Shown here: piece by piece, positions 46,585 to 64,000 of the stretch
Layout: every line of letters starts with the position of its first letter
How positions within the stretch are numbered: position 1 is the first letter of the stretch
Origin: Escherichia coli
GTDB lineage: Bacteria; Pseudomonadota; Gammaproteobacteria; Enterobacterales; Enterobacteriaceae
DNA length: 64,000 nucleotides
Assembly: GCF_030384885.1 (NCBI RefSeq)
Contig: NZ_CP128613.1
Direction: 5' to 3' (one strand)
Made by a program: the position numbers and the translations under genes
The notes under the pieces: model-generated
Databases searched by the model: none
Told to the model about the DNA's origin: nothing
The model's input: only the letters and a program-made list of their open reading frames with translations

Positions 46585-48750
46585 ATGCCAGGTTTTACTA
46601 TGGATACTAAAAAGATATTCAAGCACATACCCTGGGTGATTCTCGGAATCATCGGTGCATTCTGCCTCGCGGTAGTTGCATTACGTCGGGGGGAGCACGT
46701 CAGTGCCCTGTGGATCGTGGTCGCCTCTGTGTCGGTGTATCTGGTGGCTTATCGCTACTACAGTCTGTACATCGCCCAGAAAGTGATGAAACTCGACCCC
46801 ACGCGCGCGACGCCTGCGGTTATTAACAATGACGGTCTGAACTATGTTCCGACCAACCGTTACGTGTTGTTTGGTCACCACTTCGCCGCTATCGCCGGTG
46901 CGGGTCCGCTGGTTGGTCCGGTTCTCGCCGCGCAGATGGGCTACCTGCCTGGCACTCTGTGGCTGCTGGCGGGGGTAGTGCTGGCCGGTGCGGTACAGGA
47001 CTTTATGGTGCTGTTTATCTCCTCTCGCCGTAACGGTGCATCTCTCGGTGAGATGATCAAAGAAGAGATGGGGCCAGTGCCGGGGACTATCGCGCTGTTT
47101 GGCTGTTTCTTAATCATGATCATCATCCTCGCCGTTCTGGCGCTGATTGTGGTTAAAGCCCTGGCCGAAAGTCCGTGGGGTGTCTTCACCGTTTGCTCAA
47201 CCGTACCAATTGCGCTGTTTATGGGTATCTACATGCGCTTTATCCGTCCGGGACGTGTAGGTGAAGTCTCTGTTATTGGTATCGTGCTGCTGGTTGCCTC
47301 TATCTACTTCGGTGGCGTAATTGCTCACGATCCGTACTGGGGTCCGGCACTGACCTTTAAAGACACCACCATTACCTTCGCGCTGATTGGCTATGCGTTT
47401 GTTTCCGCACTGCTGCCGGTGTGGCTGATCCTCGCACCGCGCGACTATCTGGCAACCTTCCTGAAAATCGGCGTTATCGTCGGCCTGGCGCTGGGTATCG
47501 TGGTGTTGAACCCGGAACTGAAAATGCCTGCGATGACGCAGTACATTGACGGTACTGGCCCGCTGTGGAAAGGCGCTCTGTTCCCGTTCCTGTTCATCAC
47601 CATCGCCTGTGGTGCGGTATCTGGCTTCCACGCGCTGATCTCTTCCGGTACGACGCCGAAACTGCTGGCTAACGAAACCGACGCGCGTTTCATTGGCTAC
47701 GGCGCAATGCTGATGGAGTCCTTCGTGGCGATTATGGCGCTGGTTGCTGCATCCATCATCGAACCGGGTCTTTACTTCGCGATGAATACCCCGCCTGCGG
47801 GCCTTGGCATCACCATGCCTAACCTGCATGAAATGGGTGGCGAGAACGCGCCGATCATCATGGCGCAGCTGAAAGACGTTACCGCACACGCGGCAGCGAC
47901 TGTCAGCTCCTGGGGCTTCGTGATTTCGCCAGAGCAGATCCTGCAAACCGCGAAAGACATTGGTGAGCCTTCTGTCCTGAACCGTGCAGGTGGTGCGCCG
48001 ACGCTGGCGGTAGGTATCGCTCACGTGTTCCACAAAGTGCTGCCGATGGCTGACATGGGCTTCTGGTATCACTTCGGTATTCTGTTCGAAGCCCTGTTCA
48101 TCCTGACCGCGCTGGATGCGGGTACCCGTTCTGGCCGCTTTATGCTGCAAGACCTGCTGGGTAACTTCATCCCGTTCCTGAAAAAAACCGATTCTCTGGT
48201 TGCCGGTATCATCGGTACTGCGGGCTGTGTGGGTCTGTGGGGCTACCTGCTGTATCAGGGCGTGGTCGATCCGCTGGGCGGCGTTAAGAGCCTGTGGCCG
48301 CTGTTCGGTATCTCCAACCAGATGCTGGCAGCCGTAGCGCTGGTACTGGGCACCGTTGTGCTGATTAAGATGAAGCGCACCCAATACATCTGGGTGACTG
48401 TTGTTCCGGCTGTATGGCTGCTTATCTGCACCACCTGGGCGCTGGGCCTGAAACTGTTCAGCACCAACCCGCAGATGGAAGGCTTCTTCTATATGGCAAG
48501 CCAGTACAAAGAGAAGATTGCTAACGGTACTGACCTGACGGCACAGCAGATTGCCAACATGAACCACATCGTTGTGAACAACTACACCAACGCGGGCCTG
48601 AGTATTCTGTTCCTGATTGTGGTGTACAGCATCATCTTCTACGGTTTCAAAACCTGGTTGAAGGTGCGTAACAGCGACAAACGTACTGACAAAGAAACAC
48701 CGTACGTTCCAATCCCGGAAGGCGGCGTGAAGATCTCTTCGCACCACTAA
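46585..48750 (+). CDS. btsT: CstA-family pyruvate/H+ symporter BtsT (YjiY)
   Basis: 721-aa polytopic CstA-family ORF; synteny with yjiX and yjiA. Confidence 0.92.
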   Translation: MPGFTMDTKKIFKHIPWVILGIIGAFCLAVVALRRGEHVSALWIVVASVSVYLVAYRYYSLYIAQKVMKLDPTRATPAVINNDGLNYVPTNRYVLFGHHFAAIAGAGPLVGPVLAAQMGYLPGTLWLLAGVVLAGAVQDFMVLFISSRRNGASLGEMIKEEMGPVPGTIALFGCFLIMIIILAVLALIVVKALAESPWGVFTVCSTVPIALFMGIYMRFIRPGRVGEVSVIGIVLLVASIYFGGVIAHDPYWGPALTFKDTTITFALIGYAFVSALLPVWLILAPRDYLATFLKIGVIVGLALGIVVLNPELKMPAMTQYIDGTGPLWKGALFPFLFITIACGAVSGFHALISSGTTPKLLANETDARFIGYGAMLMESFVAIMALVAASIIEPGLYFAMNTPPAGLGITMPNLHEMGGENAPIIMAQLKDVTAHAAATVSSWGFVISPEQILQTAKDIGEPSVLNRAGGAPTLAVGIAHVFHKVLPMADMGFWYHFGILFEALFILTALDAGTRSGRFMLQDLLGNFIPFLKKTDSLVAGIIGTAGCVGLWGYLLYQGVVDPLGGVKSLWPLFGISNQMLAAVALVLGTVVLIKMKRTQYIWVTVVPAVWLLICTTWALGLKLFSTNPQMEGFFYMASQYKEKIANGTDLTAQQIANMNHIVVNNYTNAGLSILFLIVVYSIIFYGFKTWLKVRNSDKRTDKETPYVPIPEGGVKISSHH

Positions 48751-48758
48751 CCGTGTTT

Positions 48759-48786
48759 AGCCCCGCTTCGGCGGGGCTTTGTTCTT
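48759..48786 (+). terminator. Hairpin after btsT
   Basis: AGCCCCGC-TTCG-GCGGGGCT followed by TTGTTCTT. Confidence 0.55.
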
Positions 48787-48799
48787 ATCAGAGTGAACT

Positions 48800-49003
48800 A
48801 TGTTTGGTAACTTAGGACAGGCAAAAAAATATCTCGGCCAGGCGGCAAAGATGTTGATTGGCATTCCAGACTACGACAACTACGTCGAGCATATGAAGAC
48901 CAACCATCCCGACAAGCCGTACATGAGCTATGAAGAATTCTTCCGCGAACGCCAGAACGCGCGCTACGGCGGCGATGGTAAAGGCGGTATGCGCTGTTGT
49001 TAA
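48800..49003 (+). CDS. yjiX: Small protein YjiX (YbdD/YjiX family)
   Basis: 67-aa [31 protein letters not shown]...; co-located with the CstA-family gene. Confidence 0.85.
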
Positions 49004-49013
49004 TGGAGAGAGC

Positions 49014-49970
49014 ATGAACCCGATTGCAGTTACCCTACTCACCGGTTTTTTAGGCGCAGGCAAAACCACCCTGCTGCGCCATATTCTTAATGAACAGCAC
49101 GGCTACAAAATTGCCGTGATTGAAAACGAATTCGGCGAAGTCTCCGTTGATGATCAACTGATTGGCGACCGCGCCACGCAGATCAAAACGCTGACCAACG
49201 GCTGCATCTGTTGTTCGCGCTCCAACGAGCTGGAGGACGCGCTACTCGACCTGCTGGATAATCTCGACAAGGGCAATATTCAGTTCGACCGTCTGGTCAT
49301 TGAATGCACAGGCATGGCCGATCCCGGCCCGATTATTCAGACCTTTTTCTCCCATGAGATTTTATGCCAGCGTTACCTGCTGGACGGCGTGATTGCGCTG
49401 GTGGATGCGGTACATGCCGATGAGCAGATGAACCAGTTCACCATCGCCCAGTCACAGGTTGGCTACGCCGACCGCATTCTGCTGACCAAAACCGACGTCG
49501 CAGGCGAAGCAGAAAAACTGCGTGAACGCCTGGCGCGCATCAACGCCCGCGCACCGGTCTACACCGTCACCCACGGCGACATCGATCTGGGCCTGCTGTT
49601 CAACACCAACGGTTTTATGCTGGAAGAAAACGTCGTCAGCACCAAACCACGTTTCCACTTTATCGCGGATAAACAAAACGATATTTCGTCGATTGTGGTG
49701 GAACTGGATTACCCGGTAGATATCAGCGAAGTTTCCCGCGTGATGGAAAACCTGCTGCTGGAGTCGGCGGATAAACTGCTACGTTACAAAGGGATGCTGT
49801 GGATTGACGGCGAACCTAATCGCCTGTTGTTCCAGGGCGTCCAGCGCCTCTACAGCGCCGACTGGGACCGCCCGTGGGGCGATGAAAAACCGCATAGCAC
49901 TATGGTGTTTATCGGGATTCAGCTGCCGGAGGATGAGATTCGGGCAGCGTTTGCGGGGTTGAGGAAGTAA
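49014..49970 (+). CDS. yjiA: CobW/COG0523-family metal-binding GTPase YjiA
   Basis: 318 aa from MNPIAVTLLTGFLGAGKTTLL (Walker A); CICC motif. Confidence 0.92.
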   Translation: MNPIAVTLLTGFLGAGKTTLLRHILNEQHGYKIAVIENEFGEVSVDDQLIGDRATQIKTLTNGCICCSRSNELEDALLDLLDNLDKGNIQFDRLVIECTGMADPGPIIQTFFSHEILCQRYLLDGVIALVDAVHADEQMNQFTIAQSQVGYADRILLTKTDVAGEAEKLRERLARINARAPVYTVTHGDIDLGLLFNTNGFMLEENVVSTKPRFHFIADKQNDISSIVVELDYPVDISEVSRVMENLLLESADKLLRYKGMLWIDGEPNRLLFQGVQRLYSADWDRPWGDEKPHSTMVFIGIQLPEDEIRAAFAGLRK

Positions 49971-49979
49971 GGGGTTATG

Positions 49980-50010
49980 GGCCGGATAAGGCGCAGCCGC
50001 ATCCGGCCTG
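49980..50010. repeat. REP element
   Basis: GCCGGATAAGGCGCAGCCGCATCCGGC palindromic unit between yjiA and mrr. Confidence 0.6.
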
Positions 50011-50015
50011 ATATT

Positions 50016-50930
50016 TCACTCAAAATAGTCCATATCCAGTTTCGGCACCTTCAACAAACGTGAAGAAACCCCTACTTCGTTTTCGATCATTAAGTGCACC
50101 AGGCGTTCCCCATCAACCAACACCATACCCTCGACGGATTGGGCAAAGTCACGCGCCTGAGAAGTAAATCCAGAAGTGGTAATAAACACCCCACGTTTCG
50201 CTTTTTGCCCAGCCAGTGCGCCGTAAAATGCCTGTAATTCTGGCCTGCCTACAGTATTCTGCCAACGTTTTGCCTGAACATAAACTTTCTCCAGGCCAAG
50301 TTTATCAAGCGATATCACACCATCGATGCCACCATCTCCAGTACCGCCAACACGCTGCAAATCATCACGGTGGCCGCCATACCCCAGGCGATGCAAAACA
50401 TCCAGAACAATGACTTCAAAGCGCGAAGGAGAAACCTGCAATAAGTTTTCCAGAACCTCATCAGCCACCGCATCACGAAGCTCTTTTAGCGCCTGATCTA
50501 ACCGATCGTCCGGGCTGCTCTTTGCAAGTTCTTCATGATCGGGAGAGTCGGCTTTCGGATCTAAATCGACGGCATCCGGCCGTGACTTAAGTTTGACATT
50601 CACAAAAGCGAAGGCCAGATGGTTCGTCTCCTGCTCCGTCATTGGCTGGGGATGAGACGCAACCCAGTCAAAACCCGCAGGAGTCAGGCACCATTTGCCA
50701 CGCGACAAACTTTGCGACAACCCGGCACGTTTTAAACGGTCATGCGCCCAGCCTGCACGATTTTTATAAACAAGTTGTCCGCTGGTAATGACTTTCGCTC
50801 GCTGGCTGTCATCCAGTCCTAATGCATCCGCGGCAGCCTCATGAACATCACGCGCGGCTGCACCTTCCGGTTTTGTTGCCAGATAACGCAGAACAGGTTC
50901 AATAAATTTGTCATAGGTAGGAACCGTCAT
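50016..50930 (-). CDS. mrr: Mrr modification-dependent (type IV) restriction endonuclease
   Basis: 304-aa ORF with N-terminal winged-helix region and C-terminal Mrr-cat nuclease domain; adjacent to hsdR. Confidence 0.9.
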   Translation of the reverse strand: MTVPTYDKFIEPVLRYLATKPEGAAARDVHEAAADALGLDDSQRAKVITSGQLVYKNRAGWAHDRLKRAGLSQSLSRGKWCLTPAGFDWVASHPQPMTEQETNHLAFAFVNVKLKSRPDAVDLDPKADSPDHEELAKSSPDDRLDQALKELRDAVADEVLENLLQVSPSRFEVIVLDVLHRLGYGGHRDDLQRVGGTGDGGIDGVISLDKLGLEKVYVQAKRWQNTVGRPELQAFYGALAGQKAKRGVFITTSGFTSQARDFAQSVEGMVLVDGERLVHLMIENEVGVSSRLLKVPKLDMDYFE

Positions 50931-51117
50931 AGTACATCCTTGCAGAATCAGGTAGATGTTTTTCGGCTACTATAACACTACCAAAATAGACGAACACGTT
51001 AGAAATGAGTCAGTTGCTGTGACCGTGGTCATTGCCCGGAAAGGTACAGAAAGCTAAGATGAGATGTTATGGGCCTTAAATATTTGGACAGGCCCGCACA
51101 GCAATGGATTAATAACA

Positions 51118-54100
51118 ATGATGAATAAATCCAATTTTGAATTCCTGAAGGGCGTCAACGACTTCACTTATGCCATCGCCTGTGCGGCGGAAAATAACTA
51201 CCCGGATGATCCCAACACGACGCTGATTAAAATGCGTATGTTTGGCGAAGCCACAGCGAAACATCTTGGTCTGTTACTCAACATCCCCCCTTGTGAGAAT
51301 CAACACGATCTCCTGCGCGAACTCGGCAAAATCGCCTTCGTTGATGACAACATCCTCTCTGTATTTCACAAATTACGCCGCATTGGTAACCAGGCGGTGC
51401 ACGAATATCATAACGATCTCGACGATGCCCAGATGTGCCTGCGGCTCGGGTTCCGCCTGGCTGTCTGGTACTACCGTCTGGTCACCAAAGATTATGACTT
51501 CCCGGTGCCGGTGTTTGTGTTGCCGGAACGTGGTGAAAACCTCTATCACCAGGAAGTGCTGACGCTAAAACAACAGCTTGAACAGCAGGCGCGAGAAAAA
51601 GCGCAGACTCAGGCGGAAGTGGAAGCGCAACAGCAGAAGCTGGTTGCCCTGAACGGCTATATCGCCATTCTGGAAGGCAAGCAGCAGGAAACCGAAGCGC
51701 AAACCCTGGCTCGCCTTGCGGCACTGGAAGCACAGCTCGCCGAGAAGAACGCGGAACTGGCAAAACAGACCGAACAGGAACGTAAGGCTTACCACAAAGA
51801 AATTACCGATCAGGCCATCAAGCGCACACTCAACCTTAGCGAAGAAGAGAGTCGCTTCCTGATTGACGCGCAACTGCGTAAAGCAGGCTGGCAGGCCGAC
51901 AGCAAAACCCTGCGCTTCTCCAAAGGCGCACGCCCTGAACCCGGCGTCAATAAAGCCATTGCTGAATGGCCGACCGGCAAAGATGAAACGGGTAATCAGG
52001 GCTTTGCGGATTATGTGCTGTTTGTCGGCCTCAAACCCATCGCGGTGGTAGAGGCGAAACGTAAAAATATCGACGTTCCCGGCAAGCTCAATGAGTCTTA
52101 TCGCTACAGCAAATGCTTCGATAATGGCTTCCTGCGGGAAACCTTGCTTGAGCACTACTCACCGGATGAAGTGCATGAAGCGGTGCCGGAGTATGAAACC
52201 AGCTGGCAGGACACCAGCGGCCAACAACGGTTTAAAATCCCCTTCTGCTACTCGACCAACGGGCGCGAATACCGCGCAGCAATGAAAACTAAAAGCGGCA
52301 TCTGGTATCGCGACGTGCGTGATACCCGTAATATGTCGAAAGCCTTACCCGAGTGGCATCGCCCGGAAGAGCTGCTGGAAATGCTCGGCAGTGAACCGCA
52401 AAAACAGAATCAGTGGTTTGCCGATAACCCTGGCATGAGCGAGCTGGGCCTGCGTTATTATCAGGAAGATGCCGTCCGCGCGGTTGAAAAGGCAATCGTC
52501 AAGGGTCAACAAGAGATCCTGCTGGCGATGGCGACCGGTACCGGTAAAACCCGTACGGCAATCGCCATGATGTTCCGCCTGATCCAGTCCCAACGTTTTA
52601 AACGCATTCTCTTCCTTGTGGATCGCCGTTCTCTTGGCGAGCAGGCGCTGGGGGCGTTTGAAGATACGCGTATTAACGGCGACACCTTCAACAGCATTTT
52701 CGACATTAAAGGTCTGACGGATAAATTCCCGGAAGACAGCACCAAAATTCACGTTGCCACCGTACAGTCGCTGGTGAAACGCACCCTGCAATCAGATGAA
52801 CCAATGCCGGTGGCCCGTTACGACTGTATCGTCGTTGACGAAGCGCATCGCGGCTATATTCTCGATAAAGAGCAGACCGAAGGCGAGCTGCAGTTCCGCA
52901 GCCAGCTGGATTACGTCTCTGCCTACCGTCGCATTCTCGATCACTTCGATGCGGTAAAAATCGCCCTCACCGCCACCCCGGCGCTGCATACGGTGCAGAT
53001 TTTCGGCGAGCCGGTTTACCGTTATACCTACCGTACCGCGGTTATCGACGGTTTTCTGATCGACCAGGATCCGCCGATCCAAATCACCACCCGCAACGCC
53101 CAGGAGGGAGTTTATCTCGCCAAAGGCGAGCAGGTTGAGCGCATCAGCCCGCAGGGGGAAGTGATCAACGACACCCTGGAAGACGATCAGGATTTTGAGG
53201 TCGCCGACTTTAACCGTGGCCTGGTGATCCCGGCGTTTAACCGCGCCGTCTGTAACGAACTCACCAACTACCTTGACCCGACCGGGTTACAAAAAACGCT
53301 GGTCTTCTGCGTCACTAATGCTCATGCCGATATGGTGGTGGAAGAGCTGCGTGCCGCGTTCAAGAAAAAGTATCCGCAACTGGAGCACGACGCGATCATC
53401 AAGATCACTGGTGATGCCGATAAAGACGCGCGCAAAGTGCAGACCATGATCACCCGCTTCAATAAAGAGCGGCTGCCCAATATCGTGGTAACCGTCGACC
53501 TGCTGACGACCGGCGTCGATATTCCGTCGATCTGTAATATCGTGTTCCTGCGTAAAGTACGCAGCCGCATTCTGTACGAACAGATGAAAGGCCGCGCCAC
53601 GCGCTTATGCCCGGAGGTGAATAAAACCAGCTTTAAGATTTTTGACTGTGTCGATATCTACAGCACGCTGGAGAGCGTCGACACCATGCGTCCGGTGGTG
53701 GTGCGTCCGAAGGTGGAACTGCAAACGCTGGTCAACGAAATTACCGATTCAGAAACCTATAAAATCACCGAAGCGGATGGCCGCAGTTTTGCCGAGCACA
53801 GCCATGAACAACTGGTGGCGAAGCTCCAGCGCATCATCGGCCTGGCCACGTTTAACCGTGACCGCAGCGAAACGATAGATAAACAGGTGCGTCGTCTGGA
53901 TGAGCTATGCCAGGACGCGGCGGGCGTGAACTTTAACGGCTTCGCCTCGCGCCTGCGTGAAAAAGGGCCGCACTGGAGCGCCGAAGTCTTTAACAAACTG
54001 CCTGGCTTTATCGCCCGTCTGGAAAAGCTGAAAACGGACATCAACAACCTGAATGATGCGCCGATCTTCCTCGATATCGACGATGAAGTGGTGAGTGTAA

Positions 54101-54630
54101 AATCGCTGTACGGTGATTACGACACGCCGCAGGATTTCCTCGAAGCCTTTGACTCGCTGGTGCAACGTTCCCCGAACGCGCAACCGGCATTGCAGGCAGT
54201 TATTAATCGCCCGCGCGATCTCACCCGTAAAGGGCTGGTCGAGCTACAGGAGTGGTTTGACCGCCAGCACTTTGAGGAATCTTCCCTGCGCAAAGCATGG
54301 AAAGAGACGCGCAATGAAGATATCGCCGCCCGGCTGATTGGTCATATTCGCCGCGCTGCGGTGGGCGATGCGCTGAAACCGTTTGAGGAACGTGTCGATC
54401 ACGCGCTGACGCGTATCAAGGGCGAAAACGACTGGAGCAGCGAGCAATTAAGCTGGCTCGATCGTTTAGCGCAGGCGCTGAAAGAGAAAGTGGTGCTCGA
54501 CGACGATGTCTTCAAAACCGGCAATTTCCACCGTCGCGGCGGGAAGGCGATGCTGCAAAGAACCTTTGACGATAATCTCGACAGCCTGCTCGATAAATTC
54601 AGCGATTATATCTGGGACGAACTGGCCTGA
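51118..54630 (+). CDS. hsdR: Type I restriction enzyme R subunit HsdR
   Basis: 1170 aa from MMNKSNFEFLKG...; SF2 helicase motifs (LLAMATGTGKT Walker A, DEAH-like VVDEAHRG). Confidence 0.95.
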   Translation: MMNKSNFEFLKGVNDFTYAIACAAENNYPDDPNTTLIKMRMFGEATAKHLGLLLNIPPCENQHDLLRELGKIAFVDDNILSVFHKLRRIGNQAVHEYHNDLDDAQMCLRLGFRLAVWYYRLVTKDYDFPVPVFVLPERGENLYHQEVLTLKQQLEQQAREKAQTQAEVEAQQQKLVALNGYIAILEGKQQETEAQTLARLAALEAQLAEKNAELAKQTEQERKAYHKEITDQAIKRTLNLSEEESRFLIDAQLRKAGWQADSKTLRFSKGARPEPGVNKAIAEWPTGKDETGNQGFADYVLFVGLKPIAVVEAKRKNIDVPGKLNESYRYSKCFDNGFLRETLLEHYSPDEVHEAVPEYETSWQDTSGQQRFKIPFCYSTNGREYRAAMKTKSGIWYRDVRDTRNMSKALPEWHRPEELLEMLGSEPQKQNQWFADNPGMSELGLRYYQEDAVRAVEKAIVKGQQEILLAMATGTGKTRTAIAMMFRLIQSQRFKRILFLVDRRSLGEQALGAFEDTRINGDTFNSIFDIKGLTDKFPEDSTKIHVATVQSLVKRTLQSDEPMPVARYDCIVVDEAHRGYILDKEQTEGELQFRSQLDYVSAYRRILDHFDAVKIALTATPALHTVQIFGEPVYRYTYRTAVIDGFLIDQDPPIQITTRNAQEGVYLAKGEQVERISPQGEVINDTLEDDQDFEVADFNRGLVIPAFNRAVCNELTNYLDPTGLQKTLVFCVTNAHADMVVEELRAAFKKKYPQLEHDAIIKITGDADKDARKVQTMITRFNKERLPNIVVTVDLLTTGVDIPSICNIVFLRKVRSRILYEQMKGRATRLCPEVNKTSFKIFDCVDIYSTLESVDTMRPVVVRPKVELQTLVNEITDSETYKITEADGRSFAEHSHEQLVAKLQRIIGLATFNRDRSETIDKQVRRLDELCQDAAGVNFNGFASRLREKGPHWSAEVFNKLPGFIARLEKLKTDINNLNDAPIFLDIDDEVVSVKSLYGDYDTPQDFLEAFDSLVQRSPNAQPALQAVINRPRDLTRKGLVELQEWFDRQHFEESSLRKAWKETRNEDIAARLIGHIRRAAVGDALKPFEERVDHALTRIKGENDWSSEQLSWLDRLAQALKEKVVLDDDVFKTGNFHRRGGKAMLQRTFDDNLDSLLDKFSDYIWDELA

Positions 54631-54830
54631 CACGTATACACTTCATCCTTCAGGCTGCCTCTGCGTTGGCTGCGCTCGTTCACCCCGGTCACGTACTTCT
54701 GTACGCTCCCGGGGATTCACTCACTTGCCGCCTTGATGCAACCTGAATGATTTTGTGTATATTACCCTCGGCAATTTCTTCTTCTGCGGCCCGATGAATT
54801 TGGGCCGCTGCTTAATTTACGGAACTCACA

Positions 54831-56420
54831 ATGAACAATAACGATCTGGTCGCGAAGCTGTGGAAGCTGTGCGACAACCTGCGCGATGGCGGCGTTTCCT
54901 ATCAAAACTACGTCAATGAACTCGCCTCGCTGCTGTTTTTGAAAATGTGTAAAGAAACCGGACAGGAAGCGGAATACCTGCCGGAAGGCTACCGCTGGGA
55001 TGACCTGAAATCCCGTATCGGCCAGGAGCAGTTGCAGTTCTACCGTAACCTGCTGGTACATCTGGGCGCCGACAATCAAAAGCTGGTGCAGGCAGTGTTC
55101 CAGAACGTCAACACCACCATTACCCAGCCGAAACAGTTGACCGAGCTGGTCAGCAATATGGATTCACTGGACTGGTACAACGGCGCGCACGGTAAGTCGC
55201 GCGATGACTTCGGCGATATGTACGAAGGGCTGTTGCAGAAGAACGCGAATGAAACCAAGTCTGGCGCGGGCCAGTACTTCACCCCGCGTCCGCTGATTAA
55301 AACCATTATTCATCTGCTGAAACCGCAGCCGCGTGAAGTGGTGCAGGACCCGGCGGCAGGTACGGCGGGCTTTTTGATTGAAGCCGACCGCTATGTTAAG
55401 TCGCAAACTAATGATCTGGACGACCTTGATGGCGACACGCAGGATTTCCAGATCCACCGCGCGTTTATCGGCCTCGAACTGGTGCCCGGCACCCGTCGTC
55501 TGGCACTGATGAACTGCCTGCTGCACGATATTGAAGGCAACCTCGACCACGGCGGCGCAATCCGTCTGGGCAACACCCTGGGCAGCGACGGTGAAAACCT
55601 GCCGAAAGCGCATATTGTCGCCACTAACCCGCCGTTTGGCAGCGCCGCAGGCACCAACATTACCCGCACCTTTGTTCACCCGACCAGCAACAAACAGTTG
55701 TGCTTTATGCAGCATATTATCGAAACGCTGCATCCCGGCGGTCGTGCGGCGGTCGTGGTGCCGGATAACGTACTGTTTGAAGGCGGCAAAGGCACCGACA
55801 TCCGTCGTGACCTGATGGATAAGTGTCATCTGCACACCATTCTGCGTCTGCCGACCGGTATTTTTTACGCGCAGGGCGTGAAAACCAACGTGCTGTTCTT
55901 TACCAAAGGGACGGTGGCGAATCCGAATCAGGATAAGAACTGTACCGACGACGTGTGGGTGTACGACCTGCGTACCAATATGCCGAGCTTCGGCAAGCGC
56001 ACGCCGTTTACCGACGAGCATTTGCAGCCGTTTGAGCGCGTGTATGGCGAAGACCCGCACGGTTTAAGCCCGCGCACTGAAGGGGAATGGAGTTTTAACG
56101 CCGAAGAGACGGAAGTTGCCGACAGCGAAGAGAACAAAAACACCGATCAGCATCTGGCCACCAGCCGCTGGCGCAAGTTCAGCCGCGAGTGGATCCGCAC
56201 CGTGAAATCCGATTCGCTGGATATCTCCTGGCTGAAAGATAAAGACAGCATCGACGCCGACAGCCTGCCGGAGCCGGATGTGTTAGCGGCAGAAGCGATG
56301 GGTGAACTGGTACAGGCATTGGGTGAACTGGATGCGCTGATGCGTGAACTGGGGGCGAGCGATGAGGCGGATGCACAGCGTCAGTTGCTGGAAGAAGCGT
56401 TTGGTGGGGTGAAAGAATGA
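54831..56420 (+). CDS. hsdM: Type I R-M N6-adenine DNA methyltransferase subunit HsdM
   Basis: 529-aa ORF with NPPF catalytic motif (IVATNPPFGSAAG) and SAM-binding region. Confidence 0.95.
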   Translation: MNNNDLVAKLWKLCDNLRDGGVSYQNYVNELASLLFLKMCKETGQEAEYLPEGYRWDDLKSRIGQEQLQFYRNLLVHLGADNQKLVQAVFQNVNTTITQPKQLTELVSNMDSLDWYNGAHGKSRDDFGDMYEGLLQKNANETKSGAGQYFTPRPLIKTIIHLLKPQPREVVQDPAAGTAGFLIEADRYVKSQTNDLDDLDGDTQDFQIHRAFIGLELVPGTRRLALMNCLLHDIEGNLDHGGAIRLGNTLGSDGENLPKAHIVATNPPFGSAAGTNITRTFVHPTSNKQLCFMQHIIETLHPGGRAAVVVPDNVLFEGGKGTDIRRDLMDKCHLHTILRLPTGIFYAQGVKTNVLFFTKGTVANPNQDKNCTDDVWVYDLRTNMPSFGKRTPFTDEHLQPFERVYGEDPHGLSPRTEGEWSFNAEETEVADSEENKNTDQHLATSRWRKFSREWIRTVKSDSLDISWLKDKDSIDADSLPEPDVLAAEAMGELVQALGELDALMRELGASDEADAQRQLLEEAFGGVKE

Positions 56421-57805
56421 GTTTCAACTCAACATCAAAAGAATTAATTGAGCAAAATATCAATGGGTTACTTTCAAGCCATGAGAGCTGGTTACGTATT
56501 CCAATGGATTCCGTAGCAAACATCACAAACGGTTTTGCTTTTAAGTCGGCAGAATTTAATAATCGTAAAGATGGTGTACCATTAATTAGAATTCGTGATG
56601 TTCTTAAAGGTAGTACATCGACTTATTACTCGGGGCAAATTCCTGAGGGATATTGGGTATATCCCGAAGACTTAATCGTGGGAATGGATGGTGATTTTAA
56701 TACAACTATATGGCGCTCGGAGCCCGCTCTGTTAAATCAACGAGTATGTAAAATCGAAGTTCAGGAAGACAAATACAATAAAAGATTTTTCTATCATGCC
56801 TTACCAGGATATTTATCCGCAATCAATGCAAATACGTCCTCGGTTACTGTAAAGCATCTTTCTTCCAGGACACTTCAAGATACCCTACTTCCGTTGCCAC
56901 CACTTGCCGAACAAAAAATCATCGCTGAAAAACTCGATACGCTGCTGGCGCAGGTAAACAGCACCAAAGCACGTCTTGAGCAAATCCCACAAAACCTGAA
57001 ACGTTTTCGTCAGGCGGTGCTTCATGTTGCAGTGAGCGGGAAATTAACTGAAAAATGGCGATTAGAAAATGCAACTTTAGAAAACTCATACGAATGGAAG
57101 GTGCAATCTTTATCTGATCTTGGTGTTTTAGCTCGAGGTAAATCTAAACATCGACCTAGAAACGATCCTCGCCTATTTGGGGATAAGTATCCATTTATTC
57201 AAACAGGTGAAGTTGCCAATAGTTCAGGAAGAATTAAAAGAGCAAATAAATTTTATAGTGAGTTTGGTTTATCACAAAGCAAGCTATTTCCAAAAGATAC
57301 CTTATGTATAACTATTGCTGCCAACATTGCGGATACAGCCATATTAGAGATTGAGGCATGTTTCCCGGACAGTGTCGTTGGTTTCATTTCTGATAAAGAT
57401 AAATCTCATGTATCCTTTGTGAAGTATCTAATTGATGTTAACAAAGATAATCTTGAAGCATTTGCACCAGCTACAGCACAAAAAAATATTAACTTAAAGG
57501 TTTTAAACGAACTTAAACTTCCTATTCCTGATATTAAAGAACAAGCCGAAATCGTTCGCCGCGTCGAGCAACTCTTCGCCTACGCCGACACCATAGAAAA
57601 ACAGGTCAACAACGCCCTGGCCCGCGTCAACAACCTGACGCAATCCATCCTGGCAAAAGCGTTCCGTGGTGAACTCACCGCCCAGTGGCGGGCCGAAAAC
57701 CCGGATTTGATCAGCGGAGAAAACAGCGCCGCCGCGTTGCTGGAAAAAATCAAAGCTGAACGCGCAGCCAGCGGGGGTAAAAAAGCCTCACGTAAAAAAT
57801 CCTGA
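56417..57805 (+). CDS. hsdS: Type I R-M specificity subunit HsdS (type IA family) with non-K-12 target-recognition domains
   Basis: 462-aa ORF overlapping the hsdM stop. Central (LPPLAEQKIIAEKLDTLLAQV...) and C-terminal (EQAEIVRRVEQLFAYADTIEKQVNNALARVNNLTQSILAKAFRGELTAQWR...) conserved regions are type IA-like; both variable domains differ from my recollection of the K-12 protein. Confidence 0.85.
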   Translation: MSFNSTSKELIEQNINGLLSSHESWLRIPMDSVANITNGFAFKSAEFNNRKDGVPLIRIRDVLKGSTSTYYSGQIPEGYWVYPEDLIVGMDGDFNTTIWRSEPALLNQRVCKIEVQEDKYNKRFFYHALPGYLSAINANTSSVTVKHLSSRTLQDTLLPLPPLAEQKIIAEKLDTLLAQVNSTKARLEQIPQNLKRFRQAVLHVAVSGKLTEKWRLENATLENSYEWKVQSLSDLGVLARGKSKHRPRNDPRLFGDKYPFIQTGEVANSSGRIKRANKFYSEFGLSQSKLFPKDTLCITIAANIADTAILEIEACFPDSVVGFISDKDKSHVSFVKYLIDVNKDNLEAFAPATAQKNINLKVLNELKLPIPDIKEQAEIVRRVEQLFAYADTIEKQVNNALARVNNLTQSILAKAFRGELTAQWRAENPDLISGENSAAALLEKIKAERAASGGKKASRKKS

Positions 57806-57817
57806 ACATTATTTTCT

Positions 57818-57842
57818 GGCGCACCTTTCCGGTGCGCTTTTT
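57818..57842 (+). terminator. Rho-independent terminator after hsdS
   Basis: GGCGCACC-TTTCC-GGTGCGC followed by TTTTT. Confidence 0.7.
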
Positions 57843-57937
57843 ATTATTTCACGCCAATCATAACCCACATAAATATATTTAAATCATTCCAGAAATTGCC
57901 CATTTTATTCTATTTTTAGCTGGACTTTCCCCATATT

Positions 57938-57957
57938 TACTGATGATATATCCAGGT
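57938..57957. promoter_or_regulatory. LexA (SOS) box upstream of symE
   Basis: TACTGATGATATATCCAGGT has the CTG-N10-CAG form of the LexA consensus (TACTGTATATATATACAGTA), about 80 bp upstream of the symE ATG. Confidence 0.5.
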
Positions 57958-57961
57958 ATTT

Positions 57962-58038
57962 AGCGCGGTGCGGATGTGCGCCAACACACCCGCACCGCTA
58001 ATCACAATCCCTATTTCTAAGGAATAGTAATCATGACT
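57962..58038 (-). ncRNA. symR: SymR cis-antisense sRNA (approximate bounds)
   Basis: On the minus strand a TAGAAT -10-like hexamer lies just inside the symE 5' end with a predicted start near 58038; a perfect 9-bp inverted repeat (GCGGTGCGG...CCGCACCGC, 57963-57997) sits at the expected 3' end. Consistent with the known ~77-nt SymR overlapping the symE start. Confidence 0.4.
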
Positions 58039-58374
58039 GACACGCATTCTATTGCACAACCGTTCGAAGCAGAAGTCTCCCCGGCAAATAACCGTCAATT
58101 AACCGTGAGTTATGCGAGTCGCTACCCGGATTACAGCCGTATTCCCGCCATCACCCTGAAAGGTCAGTGGCTGGAAGCCGCCGGTTTTGCCACCGGCACG
58201 GCGGTAGATGTCAAAGTGATGGAAGGCTGTATTGTCCTCACCGCCCAACCACCCGCCCCCGAAGAGAGCGAACTGATGCAGTCACTGCGCCAGGTGTGCA
58301 AACTGTCAGCGCGTAAACAAAAGCAGGTGAAGGAGTTTATTGGGGTGATTGCCGGTAAACAGAAAGTCGCGTAA
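58033..58374 (+). CDS. symE: SOS-induced type I toxin SymE (AbrB/SpoVT-fold, promotes RNA cleavage)
   Basis: 113-aa [37 protein letters not shown]...; located between hsdS and mcrB as in K-12. Confidence 0.88.
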
Positions 58375-58535
58375 CAGCGTTTACTCCCGGTTAACCACCG
58401 GGAGCCTTCCACTGACTCAATAGAAACTTTCCCCCTCAGTAAATATTTACCAGTCTGATTTTGCAGTAAAAATCTATTGTTTCAGTACGTTGCGAAAGCG
58501 ATAATAGAGGCTTAGCAATGAGGAAGGCATATCTT

Positions 58536-59915
58536 ATGGAATCTATTCAACCCTGGATTGAAAAATTTATTAAGCAAGCACAGCAACAACGTTCGCAATC
58601 CACTAAAGATTATCCAACGTCTTACCGTAACCTGCGAGTAAAATTGAGTTTCGGTTATGGTAATTTTACGTCTATTCCCTGGTTTGCATTTCTTGGAGAA
58701 GGTCAGGAAGCTTCTAACGGTATATATCCCGTTATTCTCTATTATAAAGATTTTGATGAGTTGGTTTTGGCTTATGGTATAAGCGACACGAATGAACCAC
58801 ATGCCCAATGGCAGTTCTCTTCAGACATACCTAAAACAATCGCAGAGTATTTCCAGGCAACTTCAGGTGTATATCCTAAAAAATACGGACAGTCCTATTA
58901 CGCCTGTTCCCAAAAAGTCTCACAGGGTCTTGATTATACCCGGTTTGCCTCCATGCTGGACAACATAATCAACGACTATAAATTAATATTTAATTCTGGC
59001 AAGAGTGTTATTCCACCTATGTCAAAAACTGAATCATACTGTCTGGAAGATGCGTTAAATGATTTGTTTATCCCTGAAACCACGATAGAGACGATACTCA
59101 AACGATTAACCATCAAAAAAAATATTATCCTCCAGGGGCCGCCCGGCGTTGGAAAAACCTTTGTTGCACGCCGTCTGGCTTACTTGCTGACAGGGGAAAA
59201 GGCTCCGCAACGCGTCAATATGGTTCAGTTCCATCAATCTTATAGCTATGAGGATTTTATACAGGGCTATCGTCCGAATGGTGTCGGCTTCCGACGTAAA
59301 GACGGTATATTTTACAATTTTTGTCAGCAAGCTAAAGAGCAGCCAGAGAAAAAGTATGTTTTTATTATAGATGAAATCAATCGTGCCAATCTCAGTAAAG
59401 TATTTGGCGAAGTGATGATGTTAATGGAACATGATAAACGAGGTGAAAACTGGTCTGTTCCCTTAACCTACTCCGAAAACGATGAAGAACGATTCTATGT
59501 TCCGGAGAATGTTTATATTATCGGTTTAATGAATACTGCCGATCGCTCTCTGGCCGTTGTTGATTATGCCCTGCGCAGACGATTTTCTTTCATAGATATT
59601 GAGCCAGGTTTTGATACGCCACAGTTCCGGAATTTTTTACTGAATAAAAAAGCAGAACCTTCATTTGTTGAATCTTTATGCCAAACAATGAACGAGTTAA
59701 ACCAGGAAATCAGCAAAGAGGCCACTATCCTTGGGAAAGGATTCCGCATTGGGCATAGTTACTTCTGCTCCGGGTTGGAAGATGGCACATCTCCTGATAC
59801 GCAATGGCTTAAGGAAATTGTGATGACGGATATCGCCCCTTTACTCGAAGAATATTTCTTTGATGATCCCTATAAACAACAGATATGGACCGACAAATTA
59901 TTAGGTGACTCATAG
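58536..59915 (+). CDS. mcrB: McrB, GTP-dependent 5-methylcytosine-specific restriction subunit (AAA+)
   Basis: 459 aa from MESIQPWIEKFIKQAQQQRS...; Walker A GPPGVGKT; AT-rich coding sequence. Confidence 0.93.
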   Translation: MESIQPWIEKFIKQAQQQRSQSTKDYPTSYRNLRVKLSFGYGNFTSIPWFAFLGEGQEASNGIYPVILYYKDFDELVLAYGISDTNEPHAQWQFSSDIPKTIAEYFQATSGVYPKKYGQSYYACSQKVSQGLDYTRFASMLDNIINDYKLIFNSGKSVIPPMSKTESYCLEDALNDLFIPETTIETILKRLTIKKNIILQGPPGVGKTFVARRLAYLLTGEKAPQRVNMVQFHQSYSYEDFIQGYRPNGVGFRRKDGIFYNFCQQAKEQPEKKYVFIIDEINRANLSKVFGEVMMLMEHDKRGENWSVPLTYSENDEERFYVPENVYIIGLMNTADRSLAVVDYALRRRFSFIDIEPGFDTPQFRNFLLNKKAEPSFVESLCQTMNELNQEISKEATILGKGFRIGHSYFCSGLEDGTSPDTQWLKEIVMTDIAPLLEEYFFDDPYKQQIWTDKLLGDS

Positions 59916-60961
59916 TGGAACAGCCCGTGATACCTGTCCGTAATATCTATTACATGCTTACCTATGCATGGGGTTATTTACAGGAAATTAAGCAGGCCGA
60001 CCTTGAAGCCATTCCCGGTAACAATCTTCTTGATATCCTGGGGTATGTATTAAATAAAGGGGTTTTACAGCTTTCACGCCGAGGGCTTGAGCTTGATTAC
60101 AATCCTAATACAGAAATCATTCCTGGCATCAAAGGGCGAATAGAGTTTGCTAAAACAATACGCGGCTTCCATCTTAATCATGGGAAAACCGTCAGTACGT
60201 TTGATATGCTTAATGAAGACACGCTGGCTAACCGAATTATAAAAAGCACATTAGCCATGTTAATTAAGCATGAAAAGTTAAACTCAGCCATCAGAGATGA
60301 AGCTCGTTCACTTTATAGAAAATTACCGGGCATTAGCACTCTTCATTTAACTCCACAGCATTTCAGCTATCTGAATGGCGGAAAAAATACGCGTTATTAT
60401 AAATTCGTTATAAGTGTCTGCAAGTTCATCGTCAATAATTCTATTCCAGGTCAAAACAAAGGACACTACCGTTTCTATGATTTTGAAAGAAACGAAAAAG
60501 AGATGTCATTACTTTATCAAAAGTTTCTTTATGAATTTTGCCGCCGTGAATTAACGTCTGCAAACACAACCCGCTCTTATTTAAAATGGGATGCATCGAG
60601 CATATCGGATCAGTCACTTAATTTGTTACCTCGAATGGAAACTGACATCACCATTCGCTCATCAGAAAAAATACTTATCGTTGACGCCAAATACTATAAG
60701 AGCATTTTTTCACGACGAATGGGCTCAGAAAAATTTCATTCTCAAAATCTTTATCAACTGATGAATTACTTATGGTCGTTAAAGCCTGAAAATGGCGAAA
60801 ACATAGGGGGCTTATTAATATACCCCCACGTAGATACCGCAGTGAAACATCGTTATAAAATTAATGGCTTCGATATTGGCTTGTGTACCGTCAATTTAGG
60901 TCAGGAATGGCCGTGTATACATCAAGAATTACTCGACATTTTCGGTGAATATCTCAAATAA
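59915..60961 (+). CDS. mcrC: McrC, nuclease subunit of McrBC
   Basis: 348-aa ORF starting at a GTG that overlaps the mcrB stop; PD-(D/E)xK-like C-terminal region (...IVDAKYYK...). Confidence 0.92.
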   Translation: MEQPVIPVRNIYYMLTYAWGYLQEIKQADLEAIPGNNLLDILGYVLNKGVLQLSRRGLELDYNPNTEIIPGIKGRIEFAKTIRGFHLNHGKTVSTFDMLNEDTLANRIIKSTLAMLIKHEKLNSAIRDEARSLYRKLPGISTLHLTPQHFSYLNGGKNTRYYKFVISVCKFIVNNSIPGQNKGHYRFYDFERNEKEMSLLYQKFLYEFCRRELTSANTTRSYLKWDASSISDQSLNLLPRMETDITIRSSEKILIVDAKYYKSIFSRRMGSEKFHSQNLYQLMNYLWSLKPENGENIGGLLIYPHVDTAVKHRYKINGFDIGLCTVNLGQEWPCIHQELLDIFGEYLK

Positions 60962-61017
60962 GCGGTAAGTTTTATAGAAAATACCGCTCCCGACACCACA
61001 TCGGGAGCGGCTCATCA

Positions 61018-61353
61018 TCAGGAGGCGATCACCTCCACCAGCACATCCGTTGCCCAGCTCTCTTCACTGTTGACCACATTCCCTTCCTGACAAGCTTGAT
61101 CCATTTTGACTAACTGGAAAGAAACGTCATCGCGGAAATCAAAGTAATGCCATTGCGATGAAAAGTTGATGCGCCAGTAGCCCATCCCCTGATCGAAGCG
61201 GATCTTCAATACCTGACCATCCTCAAAAGTCACCGTCAGTTTACGATGGTGAGGGATATCGCGCGGCGAGTCGAACACCGTCAGTTCTACCGGCCTGCCC
61301 AGCGCAGCAGCAAACCACTGATCAGCGAAATCCTGAAAATCCGCTATGCTCAT
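61018..61353 (-). CDS. Hypothetical protein, downstream member of a coupled gene pair
   Basis: 111-aa ORF whose ATG overlaps the stop of the upstream 277-aa ORF (ATGA overlap); no motif I can recognise. Confidence 0.4.
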
Positions 61354-62183
61354 CCAGTCATGGAAAGGCCGGTTAGCAGTCCATTCAAAAAATGCGTTCC
61401 TGTTTCATCATCTAACGGTATTGGAAACTCGCTTCGCCAGGTAGGGTGAACCTTATCAAGCTGTTGTACTGGTTCTTTGTGATTTATTAGGTTGTGAGTA
61501 AGTACTAAGGAATTGAGGTTATCAGCCATATGACTGATAAGTTCTACAGAGGTATCTTCGCTAAAAACAGTAGGCAGCGCTGATTTTTCTATGACAGCTC
61601 TTGCCAGCGAAAGGGCTGAAAAACCTGACTGCTTTGCTTGCTCATATTGTCCAAGGATCCTGGAGAAAACAGCCAGAAAGCGACTGTCTGATTCTTTGAG
61701 TAGCCGGAAAGGTAAACCACCTTCACTGAATAATGTTCCGAGAAAATTGCGTCGTTCAGATTCATAAAATCGAATTGGGCGCAGCCAGTAATCTTCCATC
61801 CCTTTCGGTACGATAGTACCAAGCTCTGTGGCGGTGAATGAAATCCCTATTTTTTTATATATAGGGTCCCACGTCCATCCGCATTGCCGTTCATAATCCC
61901 TGCGGTACCACTCAGAGCAAAAAAGAACAAAACAGGCAGCAAAGTCCCTATTACATATATTAGATTGTGATTGACCGACTGCACGGAGTAGCTGCGTTAA
62001 TTGGGTATATTCATCATTGGTTGCATGATATTCATAAAGAGGACGGCCATCCGGTTGTCTCAACCCTCTAAGATTCACAAAGTTACTTAGCCAGGAAGTA
62101 CATTTTACCCATGAAATGTATTCTGATTGACCCAAAGCAAGCTCCTTAGAGATAAAAGATACAAAAACAAAACCCCACAACAT
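61350..62183 (-). CDS. Hypothetical protein, upstream member of a coupled gene pair (may correspond to part of the K-12 yjiV/yjiT pseudogene region)
   Basis: 277-aa ORF convergent with mcrC; weak RBS; preceded by a markedly AT-rich spacer of about 460 bp. Confidence 0.4.
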
Positions 62184-62643
62184 TTCTAATTTGAAAGAAA
62201 ACCTTTCAGAATATTGTATAGTTACTCAGGCGGCAACAACTATTTTTTCAGGTCGATACTATAAATCAATTTTAGATAAAAATGATATCAACCATCTATT
62301 AATCACAACTCATTTATCACCTGATTTTATAATTTCAAATGAAAATAAATCTCAAACAATCAAAAAGTATTCAGTAGCTGACATTTAACTTTCCAGGATA
62401 TAAAACAATTAGAGAAACTGCACAATAGCGAATAATGAGAGTTGTAAAGTCAGTCAAAAAACACAAGTAATCACTGTGCGTTTTTTGACCGTTATCGACA
62501 TGAGTTTAAAGAGGTTAGTGAAGAAGATATTCCTGTACACTCCATACCTATTGATGAATTGTCTCGGGAAAATTTTTATAACTTAATATAAAAACATAAA
62601 AACGTTTTATTATATATAAATCTATATCCCCCCTCACTCCACA

Positions 62644-62808
62644 TCCTCCCTGCGTAACCCGATATCCCTCAACCGCTCATCACTCATCTGCTGTAACACG
62701 CGTCGGGTCTGCATTTGCCGCCGCCAACGCCTCACCGCCTGCCAGAGTTGCACAAGGCCGATAAACGGCGCTTTAGCTCTGTTTTCGTGAAATTCCATCT
62801 GCTGCCTC
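62644..62808 (-). CDS. yjiS: DUF1127-family small protein YjiS
   Basis: Not in the supplied track (under 60 aa). Reverse-strand translation gives MEFHENRAKAPFIGLVQLWQAVRRWRRQMQTRRVLQQMSDERLRDIGLRREDVE (54 aa). Confidence 0.75.
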
Positions 62809-62974
62809 CTCATCTTTCAGAGGCTTCATCATCCGCCTTCTGGCAGTTCACAATACAGATGCAAATATTAGTTTTATTTAACATACAGACAGGTTAAAAC
62901 AACATCTGCATCCGGTTTTTTAGCCTCATCTGTACCGGTTTTTCTCTCTGTATGGTCCAAATAAGGAGTACAGC

Positions 62975-64000
62975 ATGACGCGTTATCAACATCTGGCGAC
63001 TCTGCTTGCCGAACGGATTGAGCAAGGGCTGTATCGTCACGGGGAGAAATTGCCGTCGGTGCGCAGCTTAAGTCAGGAGCACGGCGTCAGTATCAGCACC
63101 GTGCAGCAGGCGTATCAGACGCTGGAGACGATGAAGCTCATCACTCCGCAGCCGCGTTCGGGTTATTTTGTCGCACAACGTAAAGCCCAGCCGCCAGTAC
63201 CGCCGATGACGCGTCCGGTGCAGCGCCCGGTGGAAATTACCCAGTGGGATCAGGTGCTGGATATGCTGGAGGCGCATAGCGACAGTGCCATTGTTCCGTT
63301 AAGCAAAAGCACGCCGGATGTCGAAACGCCCAGCCTGAAACCGCTGTGGCGGGAGCTAAGCCGGGTGGTGCAGCATAATCTGCAAACCGTTCTCGGTTAT
63401 GACTTGTTAGCCGGTCAGCGAGTATTGCGAGAGCAGATTGCCCGCCTGATGCTCGACAGCGGCTCGGTGGTCACCGCCGATGACATCATCATCACCAGCG
63501 GCTGCCATAACTCGATGTCGCTGGCGTTAATGGCAGTGTGTAAACCGGGCGATATTGTCGCGGTCGAATCCCCCTGTTATTACGGTTCGATGCAGATGCT
63601 GCGCGGCATGGGCGTGAAAGTGATTGAAATCCCAACCGATCCAGAAACTGGCATCAGCGTTGAAGCGCTGGAACTCGCGCTGGAACAGTGGCCGATTAAA
63701 GGCATCATTCTGGTGCCAAACTGTAATAATCCGCTGGGATTTATTATGCCGGACGCACGCAAACGGGCCGTTCTCTCTCTCGCTCAGCGTCATGATATTG
63801 TGATTTTTGAAGATGATGTCTACGGCGAACTGGCGACGGAGTATCCGCGCCCGCGGACCATTCATTCCTGGGATATCGACGGGCGAGTGCTGTTGTGCAG
63901 CTCGTTCAGTAAAAGCATTGCACCAGGCCTGCGCGTGGGCTGGGTCGCGCCGGGACGTTATCACGATAAACTGCTGCATATGAAATATGCCATCAGCAGC
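62975..64000 (+). CDS. yjiR: MocR-family regulator YjiR (GntR HTH fused to aminotransferase-like PLP domain); 3' end beyond the window
   Basis: Not in the supplied track (no stop within the window). Translation from the ATG at 62975 gives MTRYQHLATLLAERIEQGLYRHGEKLPSVRSLSQEHGVSISTVQQAYQTLE... (GntR HTH), then an aminotransferase fold with SFSKSIAPGLRVGW (PLP-lysine motif); RBS AAGGAG upstream. Confidence 0.85.
   Translation, partial: MTRYQHLATLLAERIEQGLYRHGEKLPSVRSLSQEHGVSISTVQQAYQTLETMKLITPQPRSGYFVAQRKAQPPVPPMTRPVQRPVEITQWDQVLDMLEAHSDSAIVPLSKSTPDVETPSLKPLWRELSRVVQHNLQTVLGYDLLAGQRVLREQIARLMLDSGSVVTADDIIITSGCHNSMSLALMAVCKPGDIVAVESPCYYGSMQMLRGMGVKVIEIPTDPETGISVEALELALEQWPIKGIILVPNCNNPLGFIMPDARKRAVLSLAQRHDIVIFEDDVYGELATEYPRPRTIHSWDIDGRVLLCSSFSKSIAPGLRVGWVAPGRYHDKLLHMKYAISS

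Follow-up and report, generated by a model that had tools for sequence, protein, structure and literature searches.

The Immigration Control Region of an Escherichia coli contig: a K-12-like restriction island with a rare hsdS allele and the remnant of a Druantia operon

Genes of the Immigration Control Region

We examined a restriction island in Escherichia coli contig NZ_CP128613.1 (assembly GCF_030384885.1), within a window of 64,000 nucleotides (nt), the whole stretch of DNA that was analysed. The island carries the type IV restriction gene mrr, the type I genes hsdR, hsdM and hsdS, the SOS-linked toxin gene symE with its antisense RNA SymR, and mcrB and mcrC, which encode a second type IV enzyme (Table 1). 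The initial annotation had described these modules as contiguous over about 11 kb, with mrr divergent from hsdR across a shared spacer of about 190 bp. The list of open reading frames (ORFs) for 47000-64000 and direct translation agree on these coordinates and this gene content, the block measures 10,946 bp and the spacer 187 bp. All seven ORFs of the block are uninterrupted and have no internal stop.

Table 1 Positions of genes and other features in the window, with GC content and third-position GC content (GC3) where given
Feature	Position	Strand	Description	GC	GC3
yjiA	49014-49970		conserved left anchor, directly left of mrr	0.543
Immigration Control Region block	50016-60961	mrr and SymR -; hsdR, hsdM, hsdS, symE, mcrB and mcrC +	10,946 bp
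mrr	50016-50930	-	type IV modification-dependent restriction endonuclease, 304 amino acids (aa)	0.506	0.459
mrr-hsdR intergenic region	50931-51117	.	divergent, 187 bp	42%
hsdR	51118-54630	+	type IA restriction/translocase subunit (PD-(D/E)xK nuclease and DEAD-box motor), 1170 aa	0.541
ERIC/IRU-type dispersed palindromic repeat	54639-54762	.	hsdR-hsdM spacer; imperfect palindrome, long hairpin
Terminator-like GC-rich hairpin	54786-54808	+	9 pairs, 7 GC
hsdM	54831-56420	+	type IA N6-adenine methyltransferase subunit, 529 aa	0.562
hsdS	56417-57805	+	type IA specificity subunit, 462 aa; 4-nt overlap with hsdM (ATGA)	0.412	0.352
Terminator-like hairpin downstream of hsdS	57818-57838	+	8 pairs, 6 GC, then TTTTTATTATT; T-run follows
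LexA-box core CTG-N10-CAG	57940-57955	+	symE promoter; aligned with K-12 site
SymR	57962-58038	-	cis-antisense RNA antitoxin, 77 nt; Rfam RF01809
symE	58033-58374	+	SOS-induced AbrB/MazE-fold toxin, 113 aa	0.541
mcrB	58536-59915	+	GTP-specific AAA+ motor and 5-methylcytosine-binding subunit, 459 aa	0.403	0.387
mcrC	59915-60961	+	PD-D/ExK nuclease subunit of McrBC, 348 aa, GTG start	0.381	0.370
Strong terminator-like hairpin	60983-61011	-	13 pairs; for minus-strand Druantia operon
druE C-terminal remnant	61018-61375	-	Druantia type III helicase-nuclease; ORF 61018-61353, 111 aa
druH (yjiT) N-terminal remnant	61350-62183	-	277-aa ORF; annotated start corresponds to 62135	0.424
Deletion junction	61374-61375	.	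strain 2013C-4282 has a further 8,529 bp of druH-druE here; 2-bp (TA) microhomology
yjiS	62634-62798	-

The block is read as the Immigration Control Region (ICR), or defence hotspot 36, and the initial annotation was right to call it known biology; it is textbook material. PMC12707154 (section 60) and PMC3874165 describe a variable segment that extends from yjiA to yjiN (to yjiS in older work), defined around mcrBC-hsd-mrr, in which type IA, IB or ID systems accompany Mrr, McrBC or GmrSD and toxin-antitoxin modules including symE symR. On the right the window stops within yjiR, short of yjiN; in strain 2013C-4282 (NZ_CP027579.1) the order then runs yjiS-yjiR-rpn-mdtM-yjiN.

Assignments were made with Pfam, PADLOC 2.0, NCBIfam (curated cut-offs), Rfam (gathering score) and sequence matches to PDB. 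Amino-acid identities to K-12 are given against its derivative J53, and population counts were taken among 5426 complete E. coli genomes. Pfam, PADLOC, NCBIfam and PDB upheld the Mrr, HsdRMS and McrBC assignments that had been proposed from the letters of the sequence, and full-length alignment with the EcoKI, McrBC and Mrr proteins holds. The numbering of catalytic and nucleotide-binding residues and the positions of the McrB motifs follow the enzyme literature; the residues themselves were read from the sequence, and none of the substitutions relative to K-12 falls on a catalytic or nucleotide-binding residue that was checked. The mechanisms given below are established for these families; in this strain they would follow from family membership and intact motifs.

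Mrr consists of an N-terminal winged-helix DNA-binding domain (Pfam Mrr_N, residues 6-91, 3e-20) fused to a PD-(D/E/Q)xK nuclease (Mrr_cat, residues 164-281, 1.5e-39), both above cut-off, which is the architecture of its family. PADLOC mREase_IV matches residues 1-304 with 579.8 bits, and D203, Q219 and K221 are in place. The protein is 100% identical to that of K-12 (EcoKMrr), as is the gene (915/915 nt). Given this identity to a characterised protein, it would be expected to cleave only methylated DNA: the winged helix would bind DNA with foreign patterns of N6-methyladenine (m6A) or 5-methylcytosine (m5C), and the PD-QxK nuclease would cut. The spacer between mrr and hsdR, in which the promoters of both genes are expected, is the same as in K-12 at 185 of 187 nt (98.9%).

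The hsd genes have the layout of a type IA system (EcoKI family): hsdR, a 200-bp spacer and then an overlapping hsdM-hsdS pair. Type I families are delimited by whether their members cross-hybridise and complement one another; here, the motifs of HsdR and HsdM and their close similarity to EcoKI place the system in type IA. HsdR matches Pfam ResIII, HSDR_N and EcoEI_R_C, the NCBIfam equivalog NF008521 (1740 bits, cut-off 729) and PADLOC REase_I (2803 bits); D298, E312, K314, GTGKT474 and DEAH574 are in place, and the protein is 98.9% identical to that of K-12. The longest ORF would start hsdR at 51064. We discarded that start for 51118, since both the PADLOC and the NCBIfam profile begin to align at residue 19 of that ORF; the RefSeq annotation also puts the start at the equivalent position. 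HsdM (97.5% identical to K-12) matches Pfam N6_Mtase (1.5e-94) and HsdM_N and PADLOC MTase_I (765 bits), with its NPPF motif at residue 266.

The spacer between hsdR and hsdM is 99.5% identical to that of K-12, where an ERIC/IRU-like repeat also sits. The repeat, present at a median of about 12 copies in each E. coli genome, includes a GTGACCGGGGTGAACGAGCG core that resembles the ERIC2 primer. An antisense RNA gene (Rfam V_AS5) was considered at this place and rejected, because the match is below threshold (44.9 versus 96 bits) and the sequence is this dispersed repeat. The GC-rich hairpin on the hsdM side of the spacer lies only some 22 bp ahead of the start codon of hsdM, where the leader or promoter region of that gene is expected; it may be a terminator of hsdR, an attenuator or a REP-like element.

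SymE matches Pfam SymE_toxin (PF08845, 76.7 bits, 1.4e-21) and the NCBIfam equivalog NF010128 (228.5 bits versus 132), and is 94.7% identical to the K-12 protein. SymR matches Rfam RF01809 over the full model, 1-77, with 93.1 bits (gathering score 61, E = 1.8e-17), folds into two hairpins (-41.4 kcal/mol, z = -7.2) and spans the symE 5' untranslated region and start codon (ATG at 58033). Its first hairpin carries several substitutions relative to K-12. A SymE_toxin protein with an overlapping cis-antisense RNA constitutes a type I toxin-antitoxin pair, and the description of the module as an SOS-linked toxin with an antisense RNA is thereby borne out by Pfam, NCBIfam and Rfam. The symE promoter contains a predicted LexA operator. 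For symE (yjiW), a LexA site and SOS induction have been reported, together with control by LexA, SymR and Lon as a type I toxin-antitoxin system (PMC1891008). LexA would repress symE, and the 77-nt SymR would cover its ribosome-binding site and start codon; DNA damage would then lead to SymE synthesis and growth arrest, originally ascribed to RNA cleavage and now reported as nucleoid condensation. The hairpin between hsdS and symE is identical in K-12.

McrB matches Pfam MrcB_N and AAA_5, NCBIfam NF008457 (1103 bits versus 637) and, in PDB, 6UT6_A over its full length (1047.5 bits, E = 0) as well as 3SSC. The motifs of the family, GxxxxGK(T/S), DxxG and NTAD, are found at residues 201-208 (GPPGVGKT), 300-303 (DKRG) and 333-336 (NTAD), and codon 162 is ATG, giving the internal Met162 that starts the short form, McrB-S. 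The GTG start of mcrC shares 1 nt with the stop codon of mcrB (TAGTG). McrC, its partner, matches Pfam McrBC (1e-26), NCBIfam NF007277 (450 bits versus 338) and PDB 6HZ4_M over the full length (786 bits), and D244, D257 and K259 are in place. Identity to K-12 is 98.5% for McrB and 98.6% for McrC. Hexamers of McrB would bind R-m5C sites and, with McrC, hydrolyse GTP and translocate DNA; McrC would cleave between two such sites.

The hsdS allele and its target

HsdS has the type IA arrangement of two variable target-recognition domains (TRDs) and conserved central and C-terminal regions. It is matched in two stretches by Pfam Methylase_S, by PADLOC Specificity_I (560 bits) and by EcoKI HsdS in PDB (2Y7C). 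It is near-identical to EcoKI HsdS in the central region (roughly residues 160-215) and over the final 95 or so residues; overall identity to that protein of K-12 is 40.8%, and neither TRD aligns. The score against the EcoKI-type NCBIfam equivalog, 377 bits, is below the cut-off of 662. HsdS thus lacks the matching TRDs that would give EcoKI specificity (AAC N6 GTGC), and because both TRDs differ from those of EcoKI the system should not be called by that name.

The first half of the gene has a different affinity. Over its first 603 nt, where the match ends, hsdS is 96.8% identical to hsdS of E. coli B (BL21), which is itself disrupted by IS1; the first 213 aa, comprising TRD1 and the central conserved region, are 93% identical to the BL21 (EcoBI) protein. 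HsdR and HsdM of EcoBI also belong to the IA family. The trinucleotide half of a target is usually assigned to the N-terminal TRD. EcoBI recognises TGA N8 TGCT (Table 1 of PMC3874165). We infer that the 5' half-site of the present allele is TGA, because of the 93% identity to EcoBI. The C-terminal TRD is unrelated to that of EcoBI at the DNA level, so the target would differ from that of EcoBI in its second half-site and perhaps also in spacer length. One protein search gave 2320 relatives of TRD2, spread over many phyla (50-76% identity); a named specificity was sought among them, and all are labelled 'type I restriction enzyme S subunit', so that no half-site could be assigned from these 2320. 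The target may have the form TGA-N(6-8)-?.

The whole allele occurs in 4 of the 5426 genomes and TRD2 in 6; strains 2013C-4282, Z142-3, 2020CK-00188 and R32_14_1F have this hsdS. From these comparisons, hsdS is a rare recombinant allele with a predicted specificity other than that of EcoKI, and as such an ordinary outcome of TRD shuffling. HsdM2S1 would methylate adenines in a bipartite target set by the two TRDs, and HsdR2M2S1, on meeting an unmethylated target, would pull DNA in an ATP-driven manner and cut at a distance. The strain carries a restriction island like that of K-12 but with another specificity, which bears on transforming the strain and on reading its methylome.

Mosaic structure and alternative readings

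The closest well-studied counterpart is the ICR of K-12 (mrr-hsdRMS-symE-mcrBC), which agrees in the order and orientation of its genes and in its overlaps and spacers; the LexA box, SymR and the ERIC element occupy corresponding places. It differs in both HsdS TRDs, in one base of the LexA box and in its Druantia lesions (yjiT and yjiV pseudogenes), the window having a deletion that is larger and of its own kind. Nucleotide identity to K-12 is uneven: 100% for mrr and for the symE-mcrB spacer, 95.5% for hsdM, 95.9% for symE and 97.3-99.6% for the other genes compared, with hsdR, mcrB, mcrC and yjiA at about 97.9%. These values form a sharp recombination mosaic, in which mrr is 0% divergent from K-12, the adjoining yjiA and hsdR about 2.1% and hsdM 4.5%.

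Composition is uneven as well (Table 1). The mcrBC segment had been described as AT-rich relative to flanking core genes. Its AT-richness holds, at 38-40% GC against 54-56% in hsdR, hsdM and yjiA and 0.511 for the whole window. Its immediate neighbours are other island cassettes, not core genes, since hsdS and the DruH remnant are also AT-rich; AT-richness is a property of three cassettes, not one. GC3 within the block spans 0.35 to 0.69. Codon usage was compared with that of 23 core genes of the window; of the intact ICR genes, mcrC (0.49), hsdS (0.44) and mcrB (0.42) have the largest distances, where core genes of similar length mostly lie at 0.2-0.3; the measure is noisy, the gene btsT reaching 0.43.

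The modules also differ in frequency: mrr is found in 943 of the 5426 genomes, IA-type hsdS in 922, mcrBC in 581 and symE/symR in 2859, counts that are inflated by the many K-12 laboratory derivatives in the set. The region matches somewhere in 5394 genomes, and only 576 have 80% or more of the 13-kb layout. The uneven GC, the uneven divergence from K-12 and the differing population frequencies together indicate that the cassettes were probably acquired and exchanged separately. We therefore read 50016-60961 as the E. coli ICR in a K-12-like type IA configuration, a mosaic of independently acting cassettes, with a probability of about 0.95. The finding serves mainly as context, and the mosaic is a further example of the textbook exchange of cassettes at this locus.

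Several points weigh against this reading or parts of it. PADLOC has no model match for SymE, and with its version 2.0 McrC had no match and McrB only weak REase_II matches; because of this the McrBC call rests on Pfam, NCBIfam and PDB, and the missing matches for SymE and McrC and the weak ones for McrB read as a gap in that library. The symE LexA box carries a single A-to-C change relative to K-12 at 57953, beside the CAG arm (TACTGATGATATATCCAGGTA). A scan for promoter consensus sequences gave no convincing candidate in either the mrr-hsdR or the hsdR-hsdM spacer, and was uninformative, with 13 found versus 16.9 expected from shuffled controls. In the specificity subunit, the TGA half-site would follow from 93% identity to EcoBI. 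Any defence role of SymE/SymR would be putative, and the functions given to the ICR genes are those predicted from the integrity of their sequences.

The standing of SymE/SymR bears on how many defence systems the island holds. The initial annotation had counted four, and for Mrr, HsdRMS and McrBC this stands; for SymE/SymR, a toxin-antitoxin system without a PADLOC model, it is an overstatement. We consider it rather probable that SymE/SymR is no defence system at all, being either a selfish toxin-antitoxin element or an SOS-regulated nucleoid protein that is merely co-localised with the restriction cassettes; the island would therefore hold three live defence systems, not four. Beyond the lack of a PADLOC match, its frequency far exceeds that of any single restriction cassette here, which argues that symE/symR is not tied to them. 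Kawano et al. regarded SymE/SymR as a possible selfish element that co-locates with mobile hot spots (PMC1891008), and PMC11894785, citing Thompson et al. 2022, questions its RNase activity and favours DNA binding and nucleoid compaction instead of RNA cleavage. On the other side, many toxin-antitoxin systems have been found to act in abortive infection, as is generally known, and a 2025 review of the ICR counts symE symR with the toxin-antitoxin systems found alongside the restriction families of the region (PMC12707154).

It is improbable that the cluster is partly dead, with at least one of Mrr, HsdRMS and McrBC silent or an inactive relic. The adjacent Druantia type III operon has been wrecked by deletion, hsdS disruptions such as the IS1 insertion of BL21 are common in laboratory strains, and AT-rich genes such as mcrBC and hsdS are by established knowledge typical targets of H-NS silencing. 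However, the seven ORFs are full-length, their products are 94.7-100% identical to functional K-12 proteins with catalytic and nucleotide-binding motifs intact, and the symE-mcrB and mrr-hsdR spacers are 100% and 98.9% identical to those of K-12. Acquisition of the entire 11-kb block in one horizontal transfer, which the contiguity of the genes and the recurrence of the layout in 576 genomes might suggest, is equally hard to credit in view of a GC content that runs from 0.38 (mcrC) to 0.56 (hsdM), the 0.35-0.69 range of GC3, jumps in K-12 identity between 100% (mrr), 95.5% (hsdM) and 97.9%, the differing frequencies of the modules and the independent swapping of the hsdS TRDs.

A Druantia type III remnant beyond mcrC

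Two minus-strand ORFs beyond mcrC had been set down as an uncharacterised pair. Pfam has no match for either; PADLOC, NCBIfam and residue mapping to strain 2013C-4282 show them to be what is left of a Druantia type III operon, so that the description as uncharacterised falls. The 111-aa ORF corresponds to residues 2004-2114 of the 2114-aa DruE, matching exactly the end of WP_032185828.1 from 2013C-4282, and scores 74 bits against PADLOC DruE3 (profile positions 1955-2053 of 2055). The 277-aa ORF matches PADLOC DruH3 (462 bits, profile positions 3-257 of 1100) and NCBIfam YjiT_fam (340 bits, positions 1-237 of 1090); the druH remnant in it comprises residues 1-254 of 1096 followed by a 7-aa out-of-frame tail. 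According to a 2026 preprint (PMC13192584), the YjiT family includes DruH and has its E. coli member within the ICR.

Strain 2013C-4282 shows what was lost. It has the same RefSeq gene names in the ICR and shares the rare hsdS allele, and it retains an intact Druantia III, with a DruE of 2114 aa and a YjiT/DruH of 1096 aa, where the window instead has a clean 8,529-bp deletion. On either side of the deletion the window is 100% identical to it; over the whole of 49500-61375 there is one mismatch in 11,876 bp, and 61374-64000 is 100% identical. About 12% of the roughly 9.65-kb druH-druE operon remains: the ORFs match the N-terminal 254 residues of DruH and the C-terminal 111 of DruE at high score, and the rest of the operon, including the entire helicase-nuclease core of DruE, is gone. 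Full-length DruH (about 1100 aa) and DruE (about 2100 aa), which define a type III system, were not found. The pair is thus, from its sequence, the debris of a fifth defence system, and as a system it cannot work. No new gene pair lies here, and follow-up on a non-feature is spared.

The junction was not found as one contiguous match among the complete E. coli genomes. A 160-bp junction probe was covered only as two pieces over about 695 bp, in two genomes, which suggests that those two genomes carry deletions different from that at 61374/61375.

The DruH fragment keeps its native upstream region intact. In the reference DruH the first Ig-like domain spans residues 257-464 (PMC13192584), and because it begins at residue 257 the fragment ends just short of it. 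We regard it as possible, although somewhat doubtful as a joint proposal, both that the hsdS allele specifies an IA target outside those of the classically characterised IA enzymes and that the 254-aa N-terminal fragment of DruH is still expressed and partly active. Were both readings true, the nature of the island would be unchanged.

The 13-pair hairpin lies within the 56-bp gap that separates the convergent mcrC and druE. Upstream of the druH remnant, 62184-62700 is very AT-rich (32% GC over 517 bp) and overlaps yjiS; 62184-62633 is 99.6% identical to K-12.

Strain 2013C-4282 further differs from the window in carrying a prophage of about 48.6 kb between prfC and yjjG. In the window prfC runs straight to yjjG at about 22587-22628, and in 2013C-4282 the prophage integrase adjoins yjjG. 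The 42 bp at about 22587-22628 match both flanks and resemble the core of an attachment site.

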